Below are positions 6,580 through 34,210 of a stretch of DNA of 54,196 nucleotides, one piece after another (position 1 is the first letter of the stretch; each line of letters starts with the position of its first letter). The position numbers and the translations under genes are program-made. The notes under the pieces are model-generated. The model searched no databases and was not told where the DNA came from. It saw only the letters and a list, made by a program, of their open reading frames with translations. Source of the DNA: a virus (Duplodnaviria > Caudoviricetes); the IMG/VR virus record IMGVR_UViG_3300045741_000133, positions 1-54,196 of that record. One strand, 5' to 3'.

Positions 6580-6890
6580 ATATCGTCTATCTTCCTTCTA
6601 CGCTCTCCCTTGGAGTTCAACAAGTTTCGAGCTACGGACTCCTTGGAACCCATATCTAAGTTAGTTTGGATCGTCTCATCTGCCAGTACATCTCTAGAGT
6701 GGTTCCTAGATCTGGCTTTAAGGATCTTGTCTGAGTCCTTAAGCTTCGAGGTGCCAGTAGCAGAGTTTGCTGACACCATGAACTTCTGATTAGGAGCGGT
6801 AAGAACTACGTCCCACTCCTCCTTCGGAAGCTCTTTAAGCGATCGCTTCTCCTCGCCGGTTACCTTGTGGCGGTATATCTTAAGCGCCAT
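6576..6890 (-). CDS. Hypothetical protein
   Basis: Overlaps both neighbours; GAGG RBS. Confidence 0.65.
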   Translation of the reverse strand: MALKIYRHKVTGEEKRSLKELPKEEWDVVLTAPNQKFMVSANSATGTSKLKDSDKILKARSRNHSRDVLADETIQTNLDMGSKESVARNLLNSKGERRRKIDDI

Positions 6891-9009
6891 TTACGACCTC
6901 CGATGTACCATCTTTCAGCAGGACTTGAAAGACGTTATCAACGATGTTCTTGAATACCGAGTTATGTTCGACCATCAGCACAGGGCACTTTCTAGCCTTA
7001 AGTAGATCCAGAGACTTCTCCATGCTGATCTCGCTCAAGTCCTTGAAGTACTCGTCGAAGATCAATAGATCGATCTTAGATCCCTTACGATACGACACGA
7101 TGTCCGCTAGAGCGAGATCCACAGCTAGGTTGAACCTGCGATTTTGACCGCCTGACAGCAAACCTAAGCTTCTCGGTACTCCGTCTAAGATCAGCGCCGT
7201 CTCGATCTTCTCGTCCTCAGATGAGAACTTGATCGACGCCTGAACCTCGAACAAGTCAGATAGATACTGATTCGCGCGGTACGTAAGCTCATTGAGAGCA
7301 TTCACGAACACGTACGACTTGATCTCCTTAAAACCGTCCTTGAGGACATCGAGCTGAGCAGCGTAGACTTTAGACGCGTCTAGTAGGTTGCTGAGCTCTT
7401 GAAGCTTCTCTGAGACGGTTGCGAACTCGCGCTCTAGACCACTCAACTTAGCGCGCTCTCCAGATACATCTGGAGTTGGAGTGCTAGCTATAGCCTCCTC
7501 TAAGGAAGCAACCTGTTGACTCTGGGAACTTACAAGATTCTGTAAGTTCTCAACTCGGCTCCTCAGGACCGCGAACTCAGTCTTCTGAGATCGAACGGAC
7601 GTTAGAGCTTCGTCGATCTGAGAGATGAGCGATCTTAGATCACCTTCCTCGCTAGAGGTCTCAGGTTGAACGACGTTCTCGTCTAGAAACTTGGCTACGG
7701 CATTAAGCTGCTCGATGATAGTCACAGCCTGCGCGTCGGCCTCGACGGCAGCCTTCTGTGCTCTAGCGACCATGTCAACCATCTCTTGGTTAGCGGCTTC
7801 CATAGTCTCTGCGGACTCTCTCGCGATCTGCTGCATCTGAGCCCTGACTTCGGCGATCTCGCGATCTACGTGAGACACGTCTAATGTGGTGCAGGATTGA
7901 CCGCAGGTTGGGCACTTCTTGTCTGGGTTCTTTACGTAGGCAGTTAATTCATCGAGCTTCTGAGCTAATCTTACGTACTGAGGTTGCTTATCATACTCGG
8001 ACGCTTTCTTGGCTCTCTGGACCACCAGAAGATACGCGTTCGACGTCGCTACGGACTCTGACGACTTCTTAGACTCAAGTAGAGAGTTGTATCGGTTAGC
8101 TAAGGTGTTACCTTCTCGCTGCTTAGCCGCGACCGCCGCAGCGAGCGTAGCTTGCTGAGACTTCGCGTATTGCGCCTTCGCCAGCTTCTCTTGAACTGAG
8201 GCGCGCTCGATGCCTAGTCCGACCTCGTCCGCCAAGATTCGCTTAAGATCGATGTTAGCGGCTGCGACCGAAACTTGGTCGAGCTCTGATTTAGACTTGT
8301 CTAGGTTCACGGAAGCAGCGGATAGCTGATCCGTGAGAACCTTACGCTGTTGGTCATACTTCTTTATCTTGTCATCGATGAAAGATTGAAGCATCGTGAT
8401 CTGAGACTCGATGTTACGCTGTGATCCATCAGTCAGCTGAATTTGATTCTTGAGCTTCTCGATCTTATCGTTCTCGATCTTGAGAAGGCCCATGACTTCC
8501 TTGCGTGCCTTGTCAAAGACTTGAAGGTTCTGGATGCTCGAGAGAATCTTGCCCTTGCCCTCTTGATCGATGGATAGGAACTTCTTATCGTAGTTCTGAG
8601 CAAAGTACACGCTTTGACAGAAGCTGTCAAAGTTAAGTCCTACGTACTCTTCGAGTAGCGTCTGGGTCTCTCTAAGGTCCTTGCCTCTGATTGGTTTTCC
8701 GCTCTTGGTGAAATATAGATCGTTAGGCTTTCTAGATCGAACGATAGTCTCGCCGTCGTCAAAAGTAAGCACTACCTCACAGCTAGTCTCTCCATCCTTG
8801 ATGACGTCGTCGATGTTAGCGTCCTTGGGAAGCTTACCAAACAGTAGCCAGGATATGGAGTTAAATATAGCAGACTTGCCGGATCCCTCCGACCTCTGAT
8901 CGTCTTCATTCCAGCCGTCCACAAGTGTGACACCGCGCTTGAACTCGAAGCTCAGCGCTCCCCATGACATGAAGTTCTTGGCTATCAAACTTGATAACTT
9001 ACTTCCCAC
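6880..9009 (-). CDS. SbcC/Rad50/gp46-like SMC ATPase
   Basis: GSGKS Walker A, Q-loop, CPTCGQ zinc hook, LSGGQ signature, IFDE, H-loop. Start moved to GTG at 9009 behind GGAGG. Confidence 0.93.
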   Translation of the reverse strand: MGSKLSSLIAKNFMSWGALSFEFKRGVTLVDGWNEDDQRSEGSGKSAIFNSISWLLFGKLPKDANIDDVIKDGETSCEVVLTFDDGETIVRSRKPNDLYFTKSGKPIRGKDLRETQTLLEEYVGLNFDSFCQSVYFAQNYDKKFLSIDQEGKGKILSSIQNLQVFDKARKEVMGLLKIENDKIEKLKNQIQLTDGSQRNIESQITMLQSFIDDKIKKYDQQRKVLTDQLSAASVNLDKSKSELDQVSVAAANIDLKRILADEVGLGIERASVQEKLAKAQYAKSQQATLAAAVAAKQREGNTLANRYNSLLESKKSSESVATSNAYLLVVQRAKKASEYDKQPQYVRLAQKLDELTAYVKNPDKKCPTCGQSCTTLDVSHVDREIAEVRAQMQQIARESAETMEAANQEMVDMVARAQKAAVEADAQAVTIIEQLNAVAKFLDENVVQPETSSEEGDLRSLISQIDEALTSVRSQKTEFAVLRSRVENLQNLVSSQSQQVASLEEAIASTPTPDVSGERAKLSGLEREFATVSEKLQELSNLLDASKVYAAQLDVLKDGFKEIKSYVFVNALNELTYRANQYLSDLFEVQASIKFSSEDEKIETALILDGVPRSLGLLSGGQNRRFNLAVDLALADIVSYRKGSKIDLLIFDEYFKDLSEISMEKSLDLLKARKCPVLMVEHNSVFKNIVDNVFQVLLKDGTSEVVNGA

Positions 9010-9973
9010 CGACTGCCTCCAATATGGATAGCCCAAGGGATAGAGTAGCAGGATCCAAGCTTCTGATGTCGCGCGCCCAGGACTCAAACTGAGCTTTGTT
9101 AGTTAGAGTCTCATCTAGAGAGACTCCGTCGAACTTCTCAGACTCAGACTTATCTTCCCACTTTATATCAGACCTGAACTCTGATTTATCGATAGCTACC
9201 ACCGATTCGGGCGTGCCCGTCAGCTGAATGCGTATCTTATTGCCTAAGTTCTCATCTAGGAACGTCGAGATCTTCTCTCGACATTTAGGATCCAGGGTAT
9301 CGATCTTGATCGAAACGTGTCTCGGAAACTTCGTAGGGATGAGCATCATCTCGTCAGAACCTACGTCGTAGGTAGCGATAGCTTTGTCTTGGTTAGCCTC
9401 GCCGAACGAGTGGCTGAAAGGAGTACCAAGATAGGTGAAGTTACCAGTCTGCTGAAGCTTATGAAAGTGCCCAGAAACGACGCGCTTGAACTTCGAGAAG
9501 TCGTCGTGCGTGATCCTAGCATCATCACACAAGTGACCGTTGCCGAAGTCGAAACCAGATACCTCTAGGTGGCCGAACAGCACGGAACCCTCTTTCATAG
9601 AGCCAAGAAGTTCCTTAAGCTTAATCTTGTCGTGGACGTACGGAATGACGTTGATGTCGCCGACCATAGTCGGTTGGTCGATGATCACCACGTTGGAAAG
9701 GGCCTTCAGTACCACTAGTGAGTGATCTTCACAGTCCAGGTTAAAATAGTCGTGGTTGCCGATGATGACATAGTGCGTTAGCTTTGATCGAAGAAAGTAT
9801 CTGAACAGCGCGTTTAAGCAGCGACCTCGGATGACTTCCTTAGTATTTAAGAAGTCACCGAGCCACATAGTAGGTCGATTCAAGCCTTCAACCAAGTTAA
9901 AGAGCTCCTCGACTTGGTCTAGATTATTCGGTTCTAAGTGTGGATCCCCAACAACTGTAAAAGTATCATGCAT
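8999..9973 (-). CDS. SbcD/Mre11/gp47-like nuclease
   Basis: GDPH, GD, GNHD, GHFH motifs; paired with the SbcC-like gene. Confidence 0.92.
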   Translation of the reverse strand: MHDTFTVVGDPHLEPNNLDQVEELFNLVEGLNRPTMWLGDFLNTKEVIRGRCLNALFRYFLRSKLTHYVIIGNHDYFNLDCEDHSLVVLKALSNVVIIDQPTMVGDINVIPYVHDKIKLKELLGSMKEGSVLFGHLEVSGFDFGNGHLCDDARITHDDFSKFKRVVSGHFHKLQQTGNFTYLGTPFSHSFGEANQDKAIATYDVGSDEMMLIPTKFPRHVSIKIDTLDPKCREKISTFLDENLGNKIRIQLTGTPESVVAIDKSEFRSDIKWEDKSESEKFDGVSLDETLTNKAQFESWARDIRSLDPATLSLGLSILEAVGGK

Positions 9974-20538: not shown

Positions 20539-20950
20539 GAGATGTAACTGAGAGATCTAGATCAAGCATCGCGACCGACGCGTCGAAGTCCGCATAAAAC
20601 CCCTTGACGTACACTTCCTTGATCCCTGCTTGGTAAAGCATGCGAACGCACCTTATGCAGGGCGAGATAGTGCAGTACAAGACGCAGTTGTTGGTAGAGA
20701 TGCCGTGACGAACCGCGTTACAAAGTAGGTTAGTCTCGGCGTGGATGATGTAGTCGTACTTCTCTGGTCGAGTATTCGGGAGCTTATCGTCTGGAGCTCC
20801 TCGGATGAACCCGTTGTACCCCTCCGCGATAACTGCACCTGACTCTCCGTGGATAAGAAGCGCACCTACCTTCGTCGAGGAGTCTGGTGAGGCGCTAGCC
20901 GTAGCAAGCGCCCTAAGGTGGTAGTAGTTAAGCTTCTTCTCTGAAATCAT
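20495..20950 (-). CDS. dCMP deaminase
   Basis: GYNG, HAETN and SPCIRC zinc-deaminase motifs; ATG overlaps the RNR stop. Confidence 0.92.
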   Translation of the reverse strand: MISEKKLNYYHLRALATASASPDSSTKVGALLIHGESGAVIAEGYNGFIRGAPDDKLPNTRPEKYDYIIHAETNLLCNAVRHGISTNNCVLYCTISPCIRCVRMLYQAGIKEVYVKGFYADFDASVAMLDLDLSVTSLGEFSRIELKPKRT

Positions 20951-22803
20951 CGAATCTCGCAAACTCCACCGGCACACGCTAGCTGCTCAGCCATATTAGT
21001 GTTGTCGTCAGTCTCCATGACTTGAGTTAAGTCGATGTTCTTGACGAGCTTATCATACCGGTTAAAGGTGTCCTCGTCGCAAGATTCAAACGGAGCCTGT
21101 TGATAGCTTCCGCCGTCGAACGGAAGCAAGCTGATGCCTGAGTAAGACATCCGGTGCTCCCACATTGCTTTAGCTAAGCCTTCTACTTCTACTTCTTCGG
21201 GCTTGTAGTTGATAGTGCACGACACGTTGTGGTAGTCGTTGCCCGAGCGGTGACCTGGCTTTACCCAGTTGTCATTGTAGAACAAGACTCGCTGGAACAG
21301 CTGAAGCGCAGTCTCTTCTCCGCGGATGATAGAACCTTCGGGAGACTCTTGCGGAATCGTGACCACGATGTCGCGGTCGTTCGAGATATCGTCCTCTACG
21401 AGCTCTGGGATGACGAGCTTAAAGTACTTGGCGATAGGCTCTGACTTACCTACCCGGATGCGGCGGAGGTAGAACCGGTCGTGCCTAGCGTGGATCCCTG
21501 ATGAAGATCCTAGAACGCATGAGGCAGTTCCTTCTGGTTTGATGGCGGTAGCTCTAGCCGCTTGGTTGATCCCTAAGATCTTAGAGTACTTCTCGTTGAC
21601 CTCTAGAACTAGAGCCGCGGCTTTTCTGAGCTGATCTCCAGTCATAGAAGGAGCATCCGCTATACCGGTGAAAGAGCACCCGAGCAGAGCTTCGGCCTCG
21701 GTAACCTGCTTCCACTTCTCACCTAGATAGTGGAAGTCAGTGTAAGACGCTTGCAGGGTTCCAAGAAGAGCTGCGGCGTATATCCGGTTCATGAAGTCCT
21801 TCTCAGACTTGATGCCAGTCATGTTCGTAGTAGTTAAGTTGCAGAACTGGTGCGAGTTGAGGGCGATCTCGGCGCACGGGTTCTTTCCCATGTCAAGGTC
21901 GTCCGTCCAAATGAAGCCAGGTTCTCCGGAGTTAGACTTGATGCACGCGTCGAAGACGTTCATGAACTCGTCGTGCGTAGTCTCAGACCTCAGCAGGAGC
22001 GCGCTGTTGTTGGCTCTAGCGCGATAAACGGCCTTAGTCCACCACTCTCCGTGCTTGCAGGTCAGCATCAGCTGATCATCTCGGTCGAACAACGAGATCA
22101 GCGCTGCGCGGCGGATACCACCAGATAGAACGCAGTCCGCGAGCATGCAGATCACATCATGAGCTTCTAGGGAGGTCAGCTGGCGCCCGATCGCGGTCTT
22201 GAGCTTCGACTCTACTAGCGCGAGAGCTAGTCGAAGCGGCTCTGGACCCGGAGCTTTCGATCCGGTCGTAGCTAGGTAGGTTCCTTTCGGCGAGATCTGA
22301 GAGAAGTCAAAGATCGGACGAATAGCGCCGTAAAAGTACGCGTTCGCTAAGGCGTCCGCGGCGTCTGCCCATCCCTCGATCGAGTCGTGGATGACATGAG
22401 TGTTCTCGCGCCTTGGTTGGCGAATCTTAGGAAGATCCTTCAGGTGACGCTTCTGGACTGAGAAGCCGACGCCCGCGCCGCACAGCAGCAAGTAGAAGAT
22501 CTCCGCGAATACGCGCGTGTACTTGACGTGCACGAACGAGCAGTTGTAGATTCGAGTGTTGTTCTTCATGATGGCGTCGCCGCCAAACTGGAGCGAGCGC
22601 ATAGAAGGCATGACCTTAAGATCATGAACCTGCTTATACGCCTTGATGATGTCTCTAGACAGCTTCGGAAACTTATCCAGGTGCATGGTCATGTTGCGGT
22701 TGATGCTCTCATCGAGAGACTCTCGGCGCGATCGGTGTGGAAGATACTTTGAGTATGTTTTGAATGTGACTAGATCTGACAGAAGCTTGTTCGACTTGTT
22801 CAC
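20947..22803 (-). CDS. nrdJ: Class II (adenosylcobalamin-dependent) ribonucleotide reductase
   Basis: YNCSF, NPCAEI, FCNLT, IKPEGT, C-terminal CAGGVC; no beta-subunit gene in the window. Confidence 0.9.
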   Translation of the reverse strand: MNKSNKLLSDLVTFKTYSKYLPHRSRRESLDESINRNMTMHLDKFPKLSRDIIKAYKQVHDLKVMPSMRSLQFGGDAIMKNNTRIYNCSFVHVKYTRVFAEIFYLLLCGAGVGFSVQKRHLKDLPKIRQPRRENTHVIHDSIEGWADAADALANAYFYGAIRPIFDFSQISPKGTYLATTGSKAPGPEPLRLALALVESKLKTAIGRQLTSLEAHDVICMLADCVLSGGIRRAALISLFDRDDQLMLTCKHGEWWTKAVYRARANNSALLLRSETTHDEFMNVFDACIKSNSGEPGFIWTDDLDMGKNPCAEIALNSHQFCNLTTTNMTGIKSEKDFMNRIYAAALLGTLQASYTDFHYLGEKWKQVTEAEALLGCSFTGIADAPSMTGDQLRKAAALVLEVNEKYSKILGINQAARATAIKPEGTASCVLGSSSGIHARHDRFYLRRIRVGKSEPIAKYFKLVIPELVEDDISNDRDIVVTIPQESPEGSIIRGEETALQLFQRVLFYNDNWVKPGHRSGNDYHNVSCTINYKPEEVEVEGLAKAMWEHRMSYSGISLLPFDGGSYQQAPFESCDEDTFNRYDKLVKNIDLTQVMETDDNTNMAEQLACAGGVCEIR

Positions 22804-22982: not shown

Positions 22983-24605
22983 TCATTTTGGATTAACGTA
23001 GACGATGGCTCCGCCAGCGGTGGACAGCAGCCCCGCGATGGAGACCGCGTTCTCGAGAGCGGTCCTCGTGACCTTGACGGGATCGATGATCCCTGCGGTG
23101 AGGGCTCGAACGACCTCGCGGTTGCGCGCGTCGTAGACGAGTGACTTACCTTGTTGAACTCGAACCGCGCACTCGGCGGCTTGACTCTCTGTGTAGCCGA
23201 TGTTCTCGAGGATCTGAAAGAACGGTGCTTGGAGAGCTTGGCGAAGGATCTGGTGACCGACTGACTTTCCTGGGATGCTCCTAGCGATGCGAAGTAGAGT
23301 CGAACCTCCGCCGGGGATGACGCCTTCCTGGAGAGCCGCGCGAGCCGCGTTAAGCGCGTCCTCGATACGGTCGTACTTCTCCTTGATCTCGAACTCAGTG
23401 ACTCCACCCACACCAATCTTGGCGATGCCCGAGGTCAGGGCAGCGATTCGGTCGTTTAAGACCTGAGCGTCGTACGGCGACTCGGCTCGCTCCTTAGCGG
23501 CCTTGAGCTGGTCAACGCGCTCGAGGATGTCGTCCTCAACGCCTTGACCGTCGTAAAGTGTAGTCTTGTACTTGTCAACGACCACCCGGCTGACGAGCCC
23601 GATGTCCGCCTCCTCGATCGACTCGAGGTTGCGGGCGCCGTTCCCGAGGCGGGTGCCTCCGGAGTAAGCCGCGAGGTCGTCGTAGTATCCTGTACGGACA
23701 TGGGTGGTGTGAGGTCCGGTGACCGGAACCACTACCATACCAGCTTGGTCCTTCTGGATGAGGAGAAACTGGAGAACCTCCGGAGAGAACTCGTTCGCGA
23801 GGATCATGATCGGAGGCATCTTCTTGGTGGGTTGCTCGGTTCCTGGCTCCACACCTGCGAGTATGCGGAACGCCGGGATCAGCTGGGTGTAGCTGATGAG
23901 TCTTCCGTCGTACACGATGAGAGCTACGTCCTGAGCCTCGAACTGGGTGTTCTCACGGTTGTTAAAGAAAGCATTTCGCCCCTCAGCTCCCCGCTGGAAC
24001 TGGTAGCCGTCGACCTTGTCTAGGGTGACTCGGTTGGTGTGACCCTCGTCGACGGTGACTACACCCTCAGCTCCTACGTGGTCGAAGGCGGCAGATATGA
24101 TGCTGCCGATCTCCTCGTCCCCGTTGGCTGAGATCGTGGCTACCTGGTGGATCATCTTGGTGGACTTGACCGGGATCGCGAGCTTCTTGAGCGCCTTGGC
24201 CACGTCCTTAGCGGCGACCTCGATCGACTCCTTGACGAGCTGCGGGTTCAGGGAGGAGTTTTCAGCGAGGACCTTCTCGGTCTCCTTGACGATCGCCTCT
24301 CCTAGGACGATGGCGGTGGTGGTTCCGTCGCCAGCTACCGTGACCGTCTTTCGGCATATACCCTTGACGGCTTGGATGACGATGTCCTCTTCCTCGTTGG
24401 GCGAGGAGCACTCGTCCGCTACGGACACGCCGTCCTTCGTGATCTTGGGTCCGAGGGGCGTTCCCTCTAAGGTTTGTCCTAGTCGACCGAGGATGATGGG
24501 AAGTCCACCAGGTCCTAGAGTTCTCTTAACGATACCCGCGATCTGAGAGAGTCCAGCCAGCTTCGGCTTCATGAGCTCTTCTCGTGTGACGATCTTCTTC
24601 TGCAC
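22983..24605 (-). CDS. groEL: Phage GroEL-like chaperonin
   Basis: TLGPGG, ITKDGVSVA, AGDGTTT, ATISAN, EDALNAARAA, GVIPGGG, IIDPVKV; no GGM tail. Confidence 0.93.
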   Translation of the reverse strand: MQKKIVTREELMKPKLAGLSQIAGIVKRTLGPGGLPIILGRLGQTLEGTPLGPKITKDGVSVADECSSPNEEEDIVIQAVKGICRKTVTVAGDGTTTAIVLGEAIVKETEKVLAENSSLNPQLVKESIEVAAKDVAKALKKLAIPVKSTKMIHQVATISANGDEEIGSIISAAFDHVGAEGVVTVDEGHTNRVTLDKVDGYQFQRGAEGRNAFFNNRENTQFEAQDVALIVYDGRLISYTQLIPAFRILAGVEPGTEQPTKKMPPIMILANEFSPEVLQFLLIQKDQAGMVVVPVTGPHTTHVRTGYYDDLAAYSGGTRLGNGARNLESIEEADIGLVSRVVVDKYKTTLYDGQGVEDDILERVDQLKAAKERAESPYDAQVLNDRIAALTSGIAKIGVGGVTEFEIKEKYDRIEDALNAARAALQEGVIPGGGSTLLRIARSIPGKSVGHQILRQALQAPFFQILENIGYTESQAAECAVRVQQGKSLVYDARNREVVRALTAGIIDPVKVTRTALENAVSIAGLLSTAGGAIVYVNPK

Positions 24606-31554: not shown

Positions 31555-31775
31555 CGAAGATAACCTCGCAGATAAAGAAGCTTAGTACCGGAGTCTGGTT
31601 TACGTACCCGGACGGTCTCATCTTTAGAACAAATCCAAACGACAACCGATTCATAGCTAAGCACCTAGACGTTGCAGTCCTCAAGAAGGCGACGATATCT
31701 ATCGTAGTTCGGGAGGACAGCGAGCTGCTTAGCGTAGCTTTTCGAGGAGCAGACCATGCTAAATCGTATTATTGA
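31551..31775 (+). CDS. Hypothetical protein
   Basis: GGAGG RBS, coupled. Confidence 0.55.
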   Translation: MTKITSQIKKLSTGVWFTYPDGLIFRTNPNDNRFIAKHLDVAVLKKATISIVVREDSELLSVAFRGADHAKSYY

Positions 31776-32328
31776 GAAGATAGTTCAGGCCTTGATCAGG
31801 TCGTGCGTAAAACGCGGGAAGATGTTTAAGATCACTGGAGAGCCTTCTCAGAAGGAAGACGTCTACTTAGTTAGGTACGTCGTCTTCAAGACCAGGTTCT
31901 TGTCGCTCTACATCCACCGATTCATGAGGTCTGACTCATCTGATCCACACGACCATCCCTGGAACTTCTTCACGTACGTAGTTTCTGGGTCATATAAAGA
32001 ACACTTCTACGACACGATGAAGCCTCGCGAGCGCAAGGACTACTTCTTCACCGCTAGCAAGAAGCGTCAGTTCACCTCGCTGTGGACTCCTAAGATCAAC
32101 ATCCGCAAAGCAGGCTCGCTCGCGTACCGAAGAGCCGAAGACATCCACTGGGTAGAGACCGATAAGGTTAGATCCATCTGGGAGATCAACGAGGCGCCAC
32201 TCACGATCTGCTTGATCTTGCGCCGCCGTCGAAGATGGGGTTTTTGGACCTCTAGTCATACTTTCGTTGATTGGCGCAAATTCCTTAAGGTTAGGCCGAA
32301 CGATCCCCGAATCGAGGGAGCCGAGTAG
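31756..32328 (+). CDS. Cupin-fold protein
   Basis: HDHPW...GSYKE...H motif and RRWGF. Confidence 0.7.
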   Translation: MLNRIIEKIVQALIRSCVKRGKMFKITGEPSQKEDVYLVRYVVFKTRFLSLYIHRFMRSDSSDPHDHPWNFFTYVVSGSYKEHFYDTMKPRERKDYFFTASKKRQFTSLWTPKINIRKAGSLAYRRAEDIHWVETDKVRSIWEINEAPLTICLILRRRRRWGFWTSSHTFVDWRKFLKVRPNDPRIEGAE

Positions 32329-32546
32329 TGAAGCGCAGCGAGATCATAAAAAACGTAGTTAATGACTCAGAGGGTAAGTACTCCGAGAACACCGTCAACG
32401 AGATCTTGTTCTTGCTCGAGAGCTACGGCATAAAGCCTCCAACGTATCGTGAGAAGTCGATCATGCCTGGCTACGAGTACTTCGAGGTCGATAAATGGGA
32501 GCCTGAGAGTCAGCAGGCGTCCCAAGACGATACGAACATATCTTGA
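32328..32546 (+). CDS. Hypothetical protein
   Basis: Coupled ORF with RBS. Confidence 0.5.
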   Translation: MKRSEIIKNVVNDSEGKYSENTVNEILFLLESYGIKPPTYREKSIMPGYEYFEVDKWEPESQQASQDDTNIS

Positions 32547-32809
32547 TGGTGGTAGATCTCGTCGAAGCGCTCGTGATGGATCATCTTACGGACCCAGCGA
32601 CGCTCTTCGCGATTGCCGCGGTCCTTTAGATACCTTCTGCACTTGCACCAGGTTCGATGCTTAGATTGATCCTTGGCGAAGCCCTTGCGCTCGCGCCAAT
32701 CGTCCTTGACATGATCCTTATCCTTCTTGCGGTAAGATCCGTCTTGACGAAACTTAGATACGCCGGCGTGCATCAAGTGACGACGCGCCAGCCAAGCTTT
32801 TAATGTCAT
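32510..32809 (-). CDS. Small highly basic protein, isolated antisense gene
   Basis: AAAGGAG RBS; Arg/Lys/His-rich 99 aa. Confidence 0.65.
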   Translation of the reverse strand: MTLKAWLARRHLMHAGVSKFRQDGSYRKKDKDHVKDDWRERKGFAKDQSKHRTWCKCRRYLKDRGNREERRWVRKMIHHERFDEIYHHQDMFVSSWDAC

Positions 32810-32812
32810 AAA

Positions 32813-32856
32813 ACAACTCCTTTAAGTTACCTAAAGAATTGTCATGACCAGCCTCC
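32813..32856 (-). promoter_or_regulatory. Mini uORF (MTIL*, 32831-32845) within an SD-sequestering hairpin
   Basis: GGAGG-N6-ATG ACA ATT CTT TAG; ACAATTCTTTAGG pairs with CTTAAAGGAGTTGT. Confidence 0.6.
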
Positions 32857-32955
32857 AAAGTGGTTAAAAGTTGAACATACGATCATACCAAGACCGTGAA
32901 ATATGCCTTCACATGGTTAAGTCGAGCTGGTAAAGTCTCGGTATTCGGAGGTCCT

Positions 32956-33177
32956 ATGAAGGTGTTTAACATAGTGGCGCTATCACTTGCTTTGGCGATC
33001 CTCGGTTCCCAGGGCGTAGCGATGTTGTTTGAGAGCTTACTTGGGCAGTCTGGTCAGCTTCCTGCGATGCTGGCTGCGGTAGCGATCGGTATCTCAGCTA
33101 GACGCTTGGTCGAGTACATTCTTGGCTACTCCCTCAGCAGCGCGCTCCGAGGCGAAGATGACACCCAGCAACGATAA
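32956..33177 (+). CDS. Small membrane protein
   Basis: GGAGG RBS, two hydrophobic segments. Confidence 0.55.
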   Translation: MKVFNIVALSLALAILGSQGVAMLFESLLGQSGQLPAMLAAVAIGISARRLVEYILGYSLSSALRGEDDTQQR

Positions 33178-33457
33178 GATCACGAGAGAGCCTAGAGACT
33201 ACTGGCGCCCGGTAGCGATCCCGCTAGAGCAGCGATACGAGATGATCATGCAAGTCATGAACTCTACTCGCAAGTTCATGACGTCTAGGCAGATCGCCGA
33301 TTCTTACATCAACAACCCAACGACATCGGATGTTCTCGTGACGGGTTCGATCCTTAACGTATTGGCGCTCGCGAACTTGGTGACTAAGCGTCAGCTTAAC
33401 TTACCGTCAAAGGTCACTCGGTACGAGTATAAACTTCGGGGGAACAATGCGAAATAA
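33158..33457 (+). CDS. Hypothetical protein (possible winged HTH)
   Basis: MTSRQIA...LVTK...YEY pattern. Confidence 0.5.
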   Translation: MTPSNDKITREPRDYWRPVAIPLEQRYEMIMQVMNSTRKFMTSRQIADSYINNPTTSDVLVTGSILNVLALANLVTKRQLNLPSKVTRYEYKLRGNNAK

Positions 33458-33680
33458 CAAACAAGTCGAGCTGTTCGACAACTGGTTCAAGGTTAAGATG
33501 ATGTCTCGCGTCATAAAGAACGATAGTCAACAGGTCGAGTACGCGTACATCGACGCGAAGGACGCAGACGCTGCGAAAGCTAGAGCCATAGCTTCCGCGG
33601 GACCTGGGTGGATCGCGAAGATAAAGCCCATCTCTTACCGACAGATGATCAAGGAGATCTCGTGCGAGCGATCTTACTGA
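33447..33680 (+). CDS. Hypothetical protein
   Basis: ORF in operon. Confidence 0.5.
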   Translation: MRNNKQVELFDNWFKVKMMSRVIKNDSQQVEYAYIDAKDADAAKARAIASAGPGWIAKIKPISYRQMIKEISCERSY

Positions 33681-34210
33681 TCCTGCTCGTAGCTGGCTTT
33701 GGGTGCTGTAGACCTCCGTCGGAGCCCGACTGTGGGTTCGTACAAAACGAGTACTCACGCAGAGTATCATGGCCAAAGCATCCCGTCTCGTTCACGATCG
33801 ATGCTTCTGCTAAGGCATACGAGTCTGGCATCCGCTTCGCAGCCAGCGAGTGGAACCGTCAATCGGGAAGAACCTTGTTTCGAGAGGTAAGCCCTGATGT
33901 ACCTGCCGACATTATCATATTCGTCCTATCCCCGTGGGACGGGCTCGCAAGTGAGGAAGCTAGAACAACCATCTATTTTTCAGACGATAACATCAACCAC
34001 GCTCTCATTAAGATAAACCCTCAGTACGCGTTCTACAACGGTCCGTATGGCTTCGGGGTATCGATGGACTCGCTGATGATCCACGAATTAGGACACGCTC
34101 TAGGTCTCGCGCACCATCCAGGAACCGTGATGAACCCGTTGCTTGCGGAAGGCGAGTATCGCATCACTTTGAGTCAGCACGAGCTCGACGCCATGGCGTG
34201 CGAGTACTAA
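33662..34210 (+). CDS. Matrixin-family (M10-like) zinc metalloprotease, probable lipoprotein
   Basis: HELGHALGLAH zinc motif and VMNP Met-turn; GTG start behind AAGGAG gives a hydrophobic signal ending in Cys. Confidence 0.88.
   Translation: MRAILLILLVAGFGCCRPPSEPDCGFVQNEYSRRVSWPKHPVSFTIDASAKAYESGIRFAASEWNRQSGRTLFREVSPDVPADIIIFVLSPWDGLASEEARTTIYFSDDNINHALIKINPQYAFYNGPYGFGVSMDSLMIHELGHALGLAHHPGTVMNPLLAEGEYRITLSQHELDAMACEY

Follow-up and report, generated by a model that had tools for sequence, protein, structure and literature searches.

Very short upstream ORFs in bacteria and phages are usually indistinguishable from chance. The locus described here raises the question of whether a reading frame of just four codons, lying before a gene for a small basic protein, belongs to a device that controls this gene, and in this case it is comparative evidence that decides. 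The DNA analysed, hereafter the window, is a whole virus record of 54,196 bases, with an estimated completeness of 47%. By its sequence it is a large lytic-type phage, encoding a DNA polymerase, a primase-helicase, a ribonucleotide reductase, a GroEL-like chaperonin, an SbcC-like nuclease, a terminase and an ATP-dependent ligase; the chaperonin gene (22983-24605, minus strand; phrog_5725, E 5e-107) adjoins that of the ribonucleotide reductase (20947-22803). We compared ten loci carrying the basic-protein gene: the window, L001, L002, L003, L004, L007, L008, L010, L011 and L015, among which L001 and L004 are closely related, as are the window, L002 and L015.

All parts of the locus lie on the minus strand of the window. 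A first SD, GGAGG (SD1, 32856-32852), was read from the sequence and its position checked by script; it stands 6 nt ahead of the ATG of a four-codon mini-ORF, ATG ACA ATT CTT TAG (MTIL*, 32845-32831). Another stop in the same frame, TAA (32824-32822), comes two codons past the TAG and runs into the first base of a second SD, AAGGAG (SD2, 32822-32817), the GGAG of which starts 10 nt past the mini-ORF stop. The main ORF (32809..32510) starts 7 nt after SD2, at the ATG in 32809, and encodes a protein of 99 aa. The mini-ORF is the 5' arm of a predicted hairpin (32805..32848), in which it pairs, including its own ATG, with SD2, the spacer and the main ATG, leaving the stop codon at the apex. The MTIL-TAG frame with its GGAGG-N6-ATG and the hairpin, with the mini-ORF as its 5' arm and the downstream SD in its 3' arm, are as the preliminary description had them, and all positions were verified by script. 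Just 5' of SD1 there is a motif, TAACCAC (32860..32866), common to the window, L001 and L004, with the counterparts TAACCAT in L002 and TAACCTAC in L015. Further upstream, a promoter-like extended -10, TG-n-TATGAT (32882..32890), was found by eye and by alignment ~36 nt 5' of the mini-ORF ATG; it aligns with a TATAAT in L002, and the promoter-like -10 of both loci is situated ~33-36 nt before the mini-ORF ATG. A consensus promoter scan did not call the -10 candidate of the window, which is not accompanied by a good -35, and by inference only we regard it as a candidate promoter element.

The 99-aa gene is convergent with a plus-strand ORF of 72 aa (32328..32546), with a 37-nt overlap of their 3' ends (32510-32546) and no terminator-like site on either strand between 32300 and 33100, and a small ORF resembling a membrane protein, with its start at 32956, diverges from it. 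The preliminary description had called it the only antisense gene in its block, which fits the ORF maps, where predicted plus-strand ORFs surround it from 24920 to ~41003, but such placement is not conserved: in L001, L003 and L004 the family gene and the gene upstream of it point the same way. The neighbours vary from locus to locus, including tail-fibre-like, major head protein, oxygenase and nuclease genes, and we found no neighbour gene conserved among the loci. In the window, a nearby plus-strand ORF of 190 aa (31756-32328) matches phrog_4786, annotated as cysteine dioxygenase (E 1e-27), and another of 200 aa (33608-34210) carries a matrixin-type zinc metalloprotease motif (Pfam Peptidase_M10, E 1.4e-6) and has no PHROG match; the gene upstream of the family gene in L004 is a 2OG-Fe(II) oxygenase-like ORF. 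In five of five contigs (G001, G003, G004, G005 and G006, of 155, 108, 93, 42 and 18.5 kb), the family gene is within ~1-10 kb of one contig end (positions 6250, 4549, 9644, 754 and 3939, respectively), which may reflect either the genome end or the points at which assembly started.

The gene is real and belongs to a conserved, uncharacterised phage protein family. As had been noted, its product is rich in Arg, Lys and His (15, 12 and 8, together 35 of the 99 residues), with a pI of 10.07. A word-indexed search retrieved 24 homologues at 59-78% identity, which strongly conserve a core (DWRxxKGFxKDQxK...NRxxRR...) and the extreme C-terminus (...SSWDAC or ...DPWMWD), and a profile search of 1.84 billion representatives retrieved 54 proteins with E ≤ 1e-3, 13 of them with E ≤ 1e-10. 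Many of the members found with the profile have 140-230 aa and carry the homologous domain at their C-terminus. The gene was single-copy in all five viral records searched, one of which is 96% complete. Neither Pfam nor PHROG returned anything for the window protein, or a credible assignment for any family member: among 72 members, Pfam at E ≤ 0.1 yielded scattered single matches, none of them to a rescue factor. Likewise, the family profile had no match among PDB sequences, Foldseek searches of PDB and BFVD gave nothing better than E 4.7, and the best hit of a wide VIA-align search (Z 4.1) extended over one helical hairpin, with no significant structural neighbour. The ESM Atlas gave unnamed clusters only, INPHARED phage records gave no DNA match and one chance tblastn match (E 0.8), and two scans of genome contigs found no relative. 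With an alignment of 72 sequences, AlphaFold predicted a mostly helical, extended model (pLDDT 81.5, pTM 0.42); with 25 sequences, the model was poor (pLDDT 62.9). It had been proposed that the product might act as an ArfA/BrfA-type rescue factor; this did not find backing in the Pfam, PDB sequence or fold searches, although the best fold score, Z 4.1, does not exclude a relationship, and the conserved C-terminus of the family is aromatic and acidic (...SSWDAC), not a basic tail. We can only guess that the protein, basic and helical, binds nucleic acids or ribosomes.

The leader is present in nine of the ten distinct loci, L003 being the sole one without a mini-ORF, and always with the same design: a strong SD, then a frame of 4-6 codons (an ATG plus three to five other sense codons) that is closed by a stop. 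In these nine leaders, the GGAG of SD1 is 5-9 nt from the mini-ORF ATG, that of SD2 appears 8-12 nt past the mini-ORF stop and the main ATG follows another 5-9 nt on; the stop is 17-23 nt before the main ATG, and the two ATGs are separated by 35-43 nt. The encoded peptides are MTIL, MFIR, MFTLH, MTVIM, MTIRM, MISI, MPISRT, MTISRM and MTSNM. They end in TAG (three leaders), TAA (one) or TGA (five), with CTT, CGT, CAT, ATG (four times), ATT or ACG as the last sense codon and G, G, T, C, C, G, A, A and C as the base after the stop. A further in-frame stop occurs no more than three codons on in seven of the nine, hinting at selection for termination ahead of the main start; we consider this only suggestive, because the TAA or TAG overlaps or adjoins the SD2 context and because the lineages are not independent. 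The leader is kept in members with ~30-46% protein identity to the nearest query (L010 and L011), and also precedes the extended start in forms with ~60-120 extra N-terminal residues. Its presence in short and extended forms indicates that it tracks the true start of the gene and not a given position of the protein.

For comparison, when both strands of the window are scanned, 133 of the 108,252 positions (0.12%) have a leader of this type. We also took the mechanical starts of all 222 ORFs with 80 aa or more in the window and the eight loci other than L015; eight were preceded by such a leader, and seven of these belonged to the family gene; the leader of L004 was missed in this count because its longest-frame start is an upstream GTG. 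The eighth match, before the SbcC-like ORF (6880..9087, minus strand), was dismissed as chance, since it is inside the upstream ORF 8999..9973; there, a three-codon frame preceded by an SD (9087-9130, minus strand) is found 15 nt upstream of the TTG at which the SbcC-like ORF mechanically starts. A search with a degenerate pattern for leaders before other genes retrieved 13 matches in viral contigs, 12 of which were ordinary gene starts and the remaining one the L010 contig itself.

The sequence of the leader is also conserved in part. The leaders of L001 and L004 are identical over 39 bases, as far as the second codon of the mini-ORF; their adjoining main-ORF codons differ at silent sites, and their mini-ORFs keep length, start and stop and differ in the inner codons. 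The stretch ATGACAATT is common to the mini-ORF sequence of the window, L004 and L010, and AGTCGAA is common to L008 and L010, with TCGAATGTGA in L004. Parts of the mini-ORF sequence are therefore common to very divergent members that have different pairing partners, and selection may act on more than the presence of any short translated frame. Other blocks lie upstream of the leader. L008 (1690-1727) and L010 (1863-1900; approximate coordinates) contain a nearly identical block of ~36 nt, 45-125 nt upstream of the mini-ORF, with 17 identical bases followed by TAATCGCG and a TCCGAAC segment; in L008, a perfect 13-bp palindrome is found between this block and SD1. The block could be a promoter, an operator or a further RNA element. 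Likewise, the sequence CCTAATCTC(C/T)CACTG appears upstream of the leader in L001 (2753-2767), L004 (2743-2757, approximate) and L008 (1609-1623), only once per viral record, and its CTCCC can pair with SD1 in L001 and L004. The candidacy of CCTAATCTCNCACTG as a repeated phage promoter was rejected, given that it occurs once per record.

Taken alone, the window hairpin is moderately unusual, and we regard it as suggestive. The 81-nt fold of the window has a predicted energy of -18.4 kcal/mol (z -2.08), and 8 of 200 shuffled sequences were equally stable; the duplex between the mini-ORF arm and the main-start arm reaches -16.3 kcal/mol, whereas shuffled sequences average -5.9 (sd 2.1), with 2 in 1000 matching it. 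In the window, the 3' arm pairs with AAGGAG involved, and the main ATG pairs with the C+AT of the mini-ORF start. What places this hairpin beyond chance is its conservation in nine of the ten loci, against 0.12% of background positions. In all nine leaders, the arm duplex was better than 94-100% of shuffles in which the main ATG was kept fixed (Fisher 2e-9). RNAalifold, run on a MAFFT alignment of the leaders, returned no pairs and no consensus structure, because the pairing register differs among loci; for this reason we used an alignment-free arm-swap test, comparing the energies of cognate and non-cognate arms of the nine leaders. Cognate arms averaged -13.3 kcal/mol versus -7.6 for non-cognate ones, a mean that 0 of 20,000 random re-pairings attained, and the cognate partner was the top one in both row and column for five of the nine leaders. 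The conservation of uORF and hairpin among homologues, on which the preliminary description had made its case depend, is thus confirmed, with arms that co-vary. A chance origin of the leader is ruled out by the background rate together with the arm-swap permutations. Searches of Rfam 15 returned two chance-level rows for window positions 32300-33200 (E 0.21 and 7.6, far below gathering scores) and no match at E ≤ 0.1 for eight loci.

What stays constant across the nine leaders is that the start region of the mini-ORF pairs with that of the main ORF, the two ATGs pairing directly in several loci; the hiding of SD2, which is often in the apical loop region, is not constant. In all nine the stop codon is at or near the apex of the hairpin, and in most loci the whole leader is predicted to form a single closed domain with outer helices. 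According to the thermodynamic model, the probability that the main ATG is unpaired in the free leader is 0.00-0.10 in seven of the nine, and holding the region from SD1 to the stop single-stranded gives 0.41-0.73, again in seven of nine leaders. The exceptions are L001, where opening the mini-ORF moves this value from 0.04 to 0.17, and L004, where it falls from 0.32 to 0.07. In the predicted folds, the mini-ORF ATG itself has an unpaired probability of ~0 in eight of the nine leaders, and SD1 is likewise paired in L001, L004, L007 and L011.

In L003, the family gene is preceded by an ORF of 82 aa, and 5 nt separate its TAA from the 5' arm of a strong hairpin. Both the SD and the spacer are covered by this hairpin, the outer helix of which takes part of the ATG (-35.8 kcal/mol over a region of 111 nt, z -3.5). 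This locus appears to follow the same logic with a different upstream reading frame, in that a ribosome terminating at the stop of the 82-aa ORF would act like the ribosome on the mini-ORF of the other loci.

The conserved design and the co-varying arms make the opening of the hairpin by a ribosome on the mini-ORF, which the preliminary description had inferred, the natural reading of these sequences. We consider it somewhat probable that the region is a conserved cis-acting device for leader-ORF translational coupling, operating through hairpin unfolding, reinitiation or both, on an orphan phage gene, and that translation of the main protein probably depends on translating the tiny frame. SD1 would drive translation of the mini-ORF of 4-6 codons, itself the 5' arm of the hairpin; the 3' arm would be made of the spacer and start codon of the main gene, with SD2 enclosed near the apex, and the fold would keep ribosomes from initiating directly at the main ATG. 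A ribosome loaded at SD1 would read the mini-ORF, melting the entire 5' arm, and terminate at the apex, 8-12 nt before SD2, after which the main start could be used in either of two ways: a new 30S subunit would bind the site once it is unfolded, or the same ribosome would re-initiate 17-23 nt downstream. The output of basic protein would in this way be tied to, and limited by, translation of the mini-ORF. Both unfolding of RNA and ribosome scanning are presented as established models of coupling, with phage examples, in a review (PMC12548453). The loci agree with them in that an SD and start of its own lie near the downstream start in nine of ten, and a sequestering structure has one arm inside the upstream frame in nine of nine leaders; the thermodynamic model also agrees in outline with coupling, L001 and L004 deviating from it. 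Translation of the mini-ORF, dependence of the main ORF on it and the kinetics of the process are what we infer from these data.

Some aspects sit less well with coupling. Since the mini-ORF ATG is paired, the hairpin should also hinder its own opening event; and a ribosome on the stop codon would cover or abut SD2, so that the simple picture of a second ribosome binding there is sterically tight. The pairing of the mini-ORF ATG, and of SD1 in several loci, leads us to suspect that ribosomes may load for the most part while the RNA is still being made and lacks its 3' arm; this would permit only a few rounds of translation per mRNA. A more elaborate possibility, which we find quite doubtful, is that the leader is a gate reading the state of the translation apparatus, with both start codons locked against each other and the orphan basic protein as an effector on ribosomes or mRNA, in such a way that only loading on nascent RNA, or dwelling on the mini-ORF or its stop, would let the main frame be read. 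If this were true, the protein would appear as a brief pulse, or solely under disturbed host translation, for example in phage takeover, and the family as a whole would constitute a phage module of translation-status sensor plus effector.

The locus had been described as a candidate sensor of translation termination, with a CTT-TAG end mirroring the prfB site but with the RF1 codon; we rejected an RF1-specific or prfB-like release-factor sensor because stops vary (TAG three times, TAA once and TGA five times) and CTT is the last codon in the window alone, one leader in nine. A more general sensor of stalling or termination, in which the dwell of the ribosome on the mini-ORF or its stop would set the time that the hairpin stays open, and expression would rise when release factors, recycling, tRNA or an antibiotic slow the ribosome (erm/cat-type), seems to us unlikely. 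It shares with attenuators a leader ORF that is the 5' arm of an RBS-hiding hairpin, and attenuators are treated as analogous in the coupling review (PMC12548453). The partial conservation of the mini-ORF (MT(I/V/S).. in five of nine, and ..(S)RM or ..SRT in L004, L008 and L010) and the second in-frame stop of seven leaders would also suit a sensor, but neither the stop, nor the base after it, nor the last sense codon is constant, the inner codons differ even between L001 and L004, and L003 manages without any mini-ORF; furthermore, a ribosome waiting at the stop would overlie SD2, located 8-12 nt on, or lie right against it, and the downstream gene has no Pfam match, to resistance and release-factor families included. 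The mini-ORF would be secondary if the basic protein bound the hairpin of its own leader and shut off its translation, an autogenous operator that we judge rather improbable. The high pI and the predicted helical and extended fold of the protein are consistent with it, as are the fact that the leader always accompanies the family gene though neighbours differ at every locus and the conservation of some leader bases beyond what pairing needs; against this, the protein matches no RNA-binding family in Pfam, PDB sequence or fold searches, free co-variation of the hairpin leaves little constant sequence to be read, and the SD1, ATG and in-frame stop of nine of the ten loci go unexplained. It is the mini-ORF and leader sequence shared beyond pairing that keeps both sensor and operator alive.

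An element for mRNA stability or processing is, in our opinion, about as improbable as an operator: a ribosome parked on SD1 or the mini-ORF would protect the message, or the hairpin, long and irregular, would be a cleavage site at which a nuclease, specific for double strands or for GGAG, times expression. SD1 is near the likely 5' end in the window and L002, with the candidate -10 ~33-36 nt before the mini-ORF ATG, and the leader of most loci folds as one closed domain with outer helices, but the candidate 5' end, a prediction, is much further off in L008 and L015, and this explanation does not account for pairing of the start regions or for the fixed distance between ATGs. The bar minigenes of phage lambda reportedly shed short peptidyl-tRNAs and starve the cell of a tRNA. 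A toxic minigene of this kind, shedding short peptidyl-tRNAs and depriving the host of a tRNA, would be in keeping with a strong SD before a very short ORF in a phage, and with the Ile codons of seven of the nine mini-ORFs; we deem it very improbable, given that the last sense codon is not constant, that the element is always base-paired to the start of one particular gene and that L003 lacks it. Programmed bypass, as is said to occur in T4 gene 60 by take-off and landing of the peptidyl-tRNA, would here imply that the peptidyl-tRNA on the last codon of the mini-ORF detaches when the stop is reached and re-pairs with a codon matching it at the start of the main ORF. L001, L004, L010 and L011 end in ATG-TGA and have an SD-like GGAG 5-9 nt before the main ATG, and the last codon of L007, ATT, recurs in frame as main codon 3; nevertheless, the window and L008 have no such codon in frame close to the start, the SD and ATG of the main ORF are normal, and the nascent peptide would have only 4-6 residues, all of which leaves bypass as the most far-fetched of these ideas.

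Coupling through the leader ORF remains our preferred reading. Beyond it, our results establish the anatomy of the leader, its conservation and the co-variation of its arms. The comparison, over proteins down to ~30% identity, shows selection on the frame of 4-6 codons, on the SD and the stop that belong to it and on the way it pairs with the main start. The module, of ~60 nt, would be a compact natural instance of coupling and potentially a reusable genetic part, and it belongs to an orphan, single-copy phage protein family whose dosage evidently matters. Our literature searches, done with general terms that would miss differently worded papers, found no description of this leader.

Several known systems show one or other of these features. 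In R1 tap/repA, IncI/IncB repY/repZ and hok/mok, a leader frame must be translated and structure blocks direct entry at the main start; these leaders have tens of codons and are targets of antisense RNAs. The phage leader resembles them in combining a short leader frame with a structure that blocks the main start, and differs in having 4-6 codons and no evident antisense partner, the antisense placement of the window gene not being conserved. The leaders of ermC, cat-86 and cmlA continue across the stem, lie before resistance genes and depend on a ribosome stalled by a drug. In the phage too, the leader ORF is the 5' arm of a hairpin hiding the next SD, but this ORF extends no further than the apex, shows only loose sequence conservation and precedes a gene for an uncharacterised basic protein, the family of which has no Pfam or PHROG assignment. 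The start of the MS2 maturation gene, closed at equilibrium, is usable on nascent RNA only and yields few proteins per RNA. A start used mainly on nascent RNA is what we propose as a possibility for the phage leader, where the kinetic window is inferential; the MS2 gene, unlike the phage leader, has no mini-ORF. As to prfB, its frameshift autoregulation site combines CTT-TGA with an internal SD that lies a few nt ahead of it, and with a +1 frame that stays open into the product. The window, and no other locus, shares with it a CTT directly before the stop. Unlike in prfB, neither the type of stop nor the CTT is conserved, SD1 ends 15 nt before the CTT instead of a few nt, the +1 frame after it closes with TAA after one codon, the base after the stop varies and the downstream gene is not a release factor.

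Closer in size is the leader of EHEC LEE1 (ler), which contains a two-codon minigene whose translation is needed for optimal downstream expression and whose position relative to the next start is critical (PMC3262186). It is alike in being a very short translated frame in a 5' leader; it differs in having two codons and belonging to a single bacterial locus, with no start-to-start hairpin reported (PMC3262186). The closest likeness is to translational coupling proper, by unfolding or scanning, the examples of which include genes VII/IX of phage f1, coat and lysis genes of MS2 and fr, and E. coli rpmI-rplT (PMC12548453). The phage leader enters this comparison through its sequence and predicted folding. 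As in the coupling described there, upstream translation would remove a hairpin that silences the downstream RBS, and the stop is near the next start (PMC12548453); L003 resembles the ordinary, two-gene version. In contrast to the coupling treated in that review (PMC12548453), what takes the place of an upstream gene in the phage leader is a dedicated frame of 4-6 codons that has a strong SD to itself; its start codon pairs with that of the main ORF, and divergent phages inherit the device together with a single gene family.
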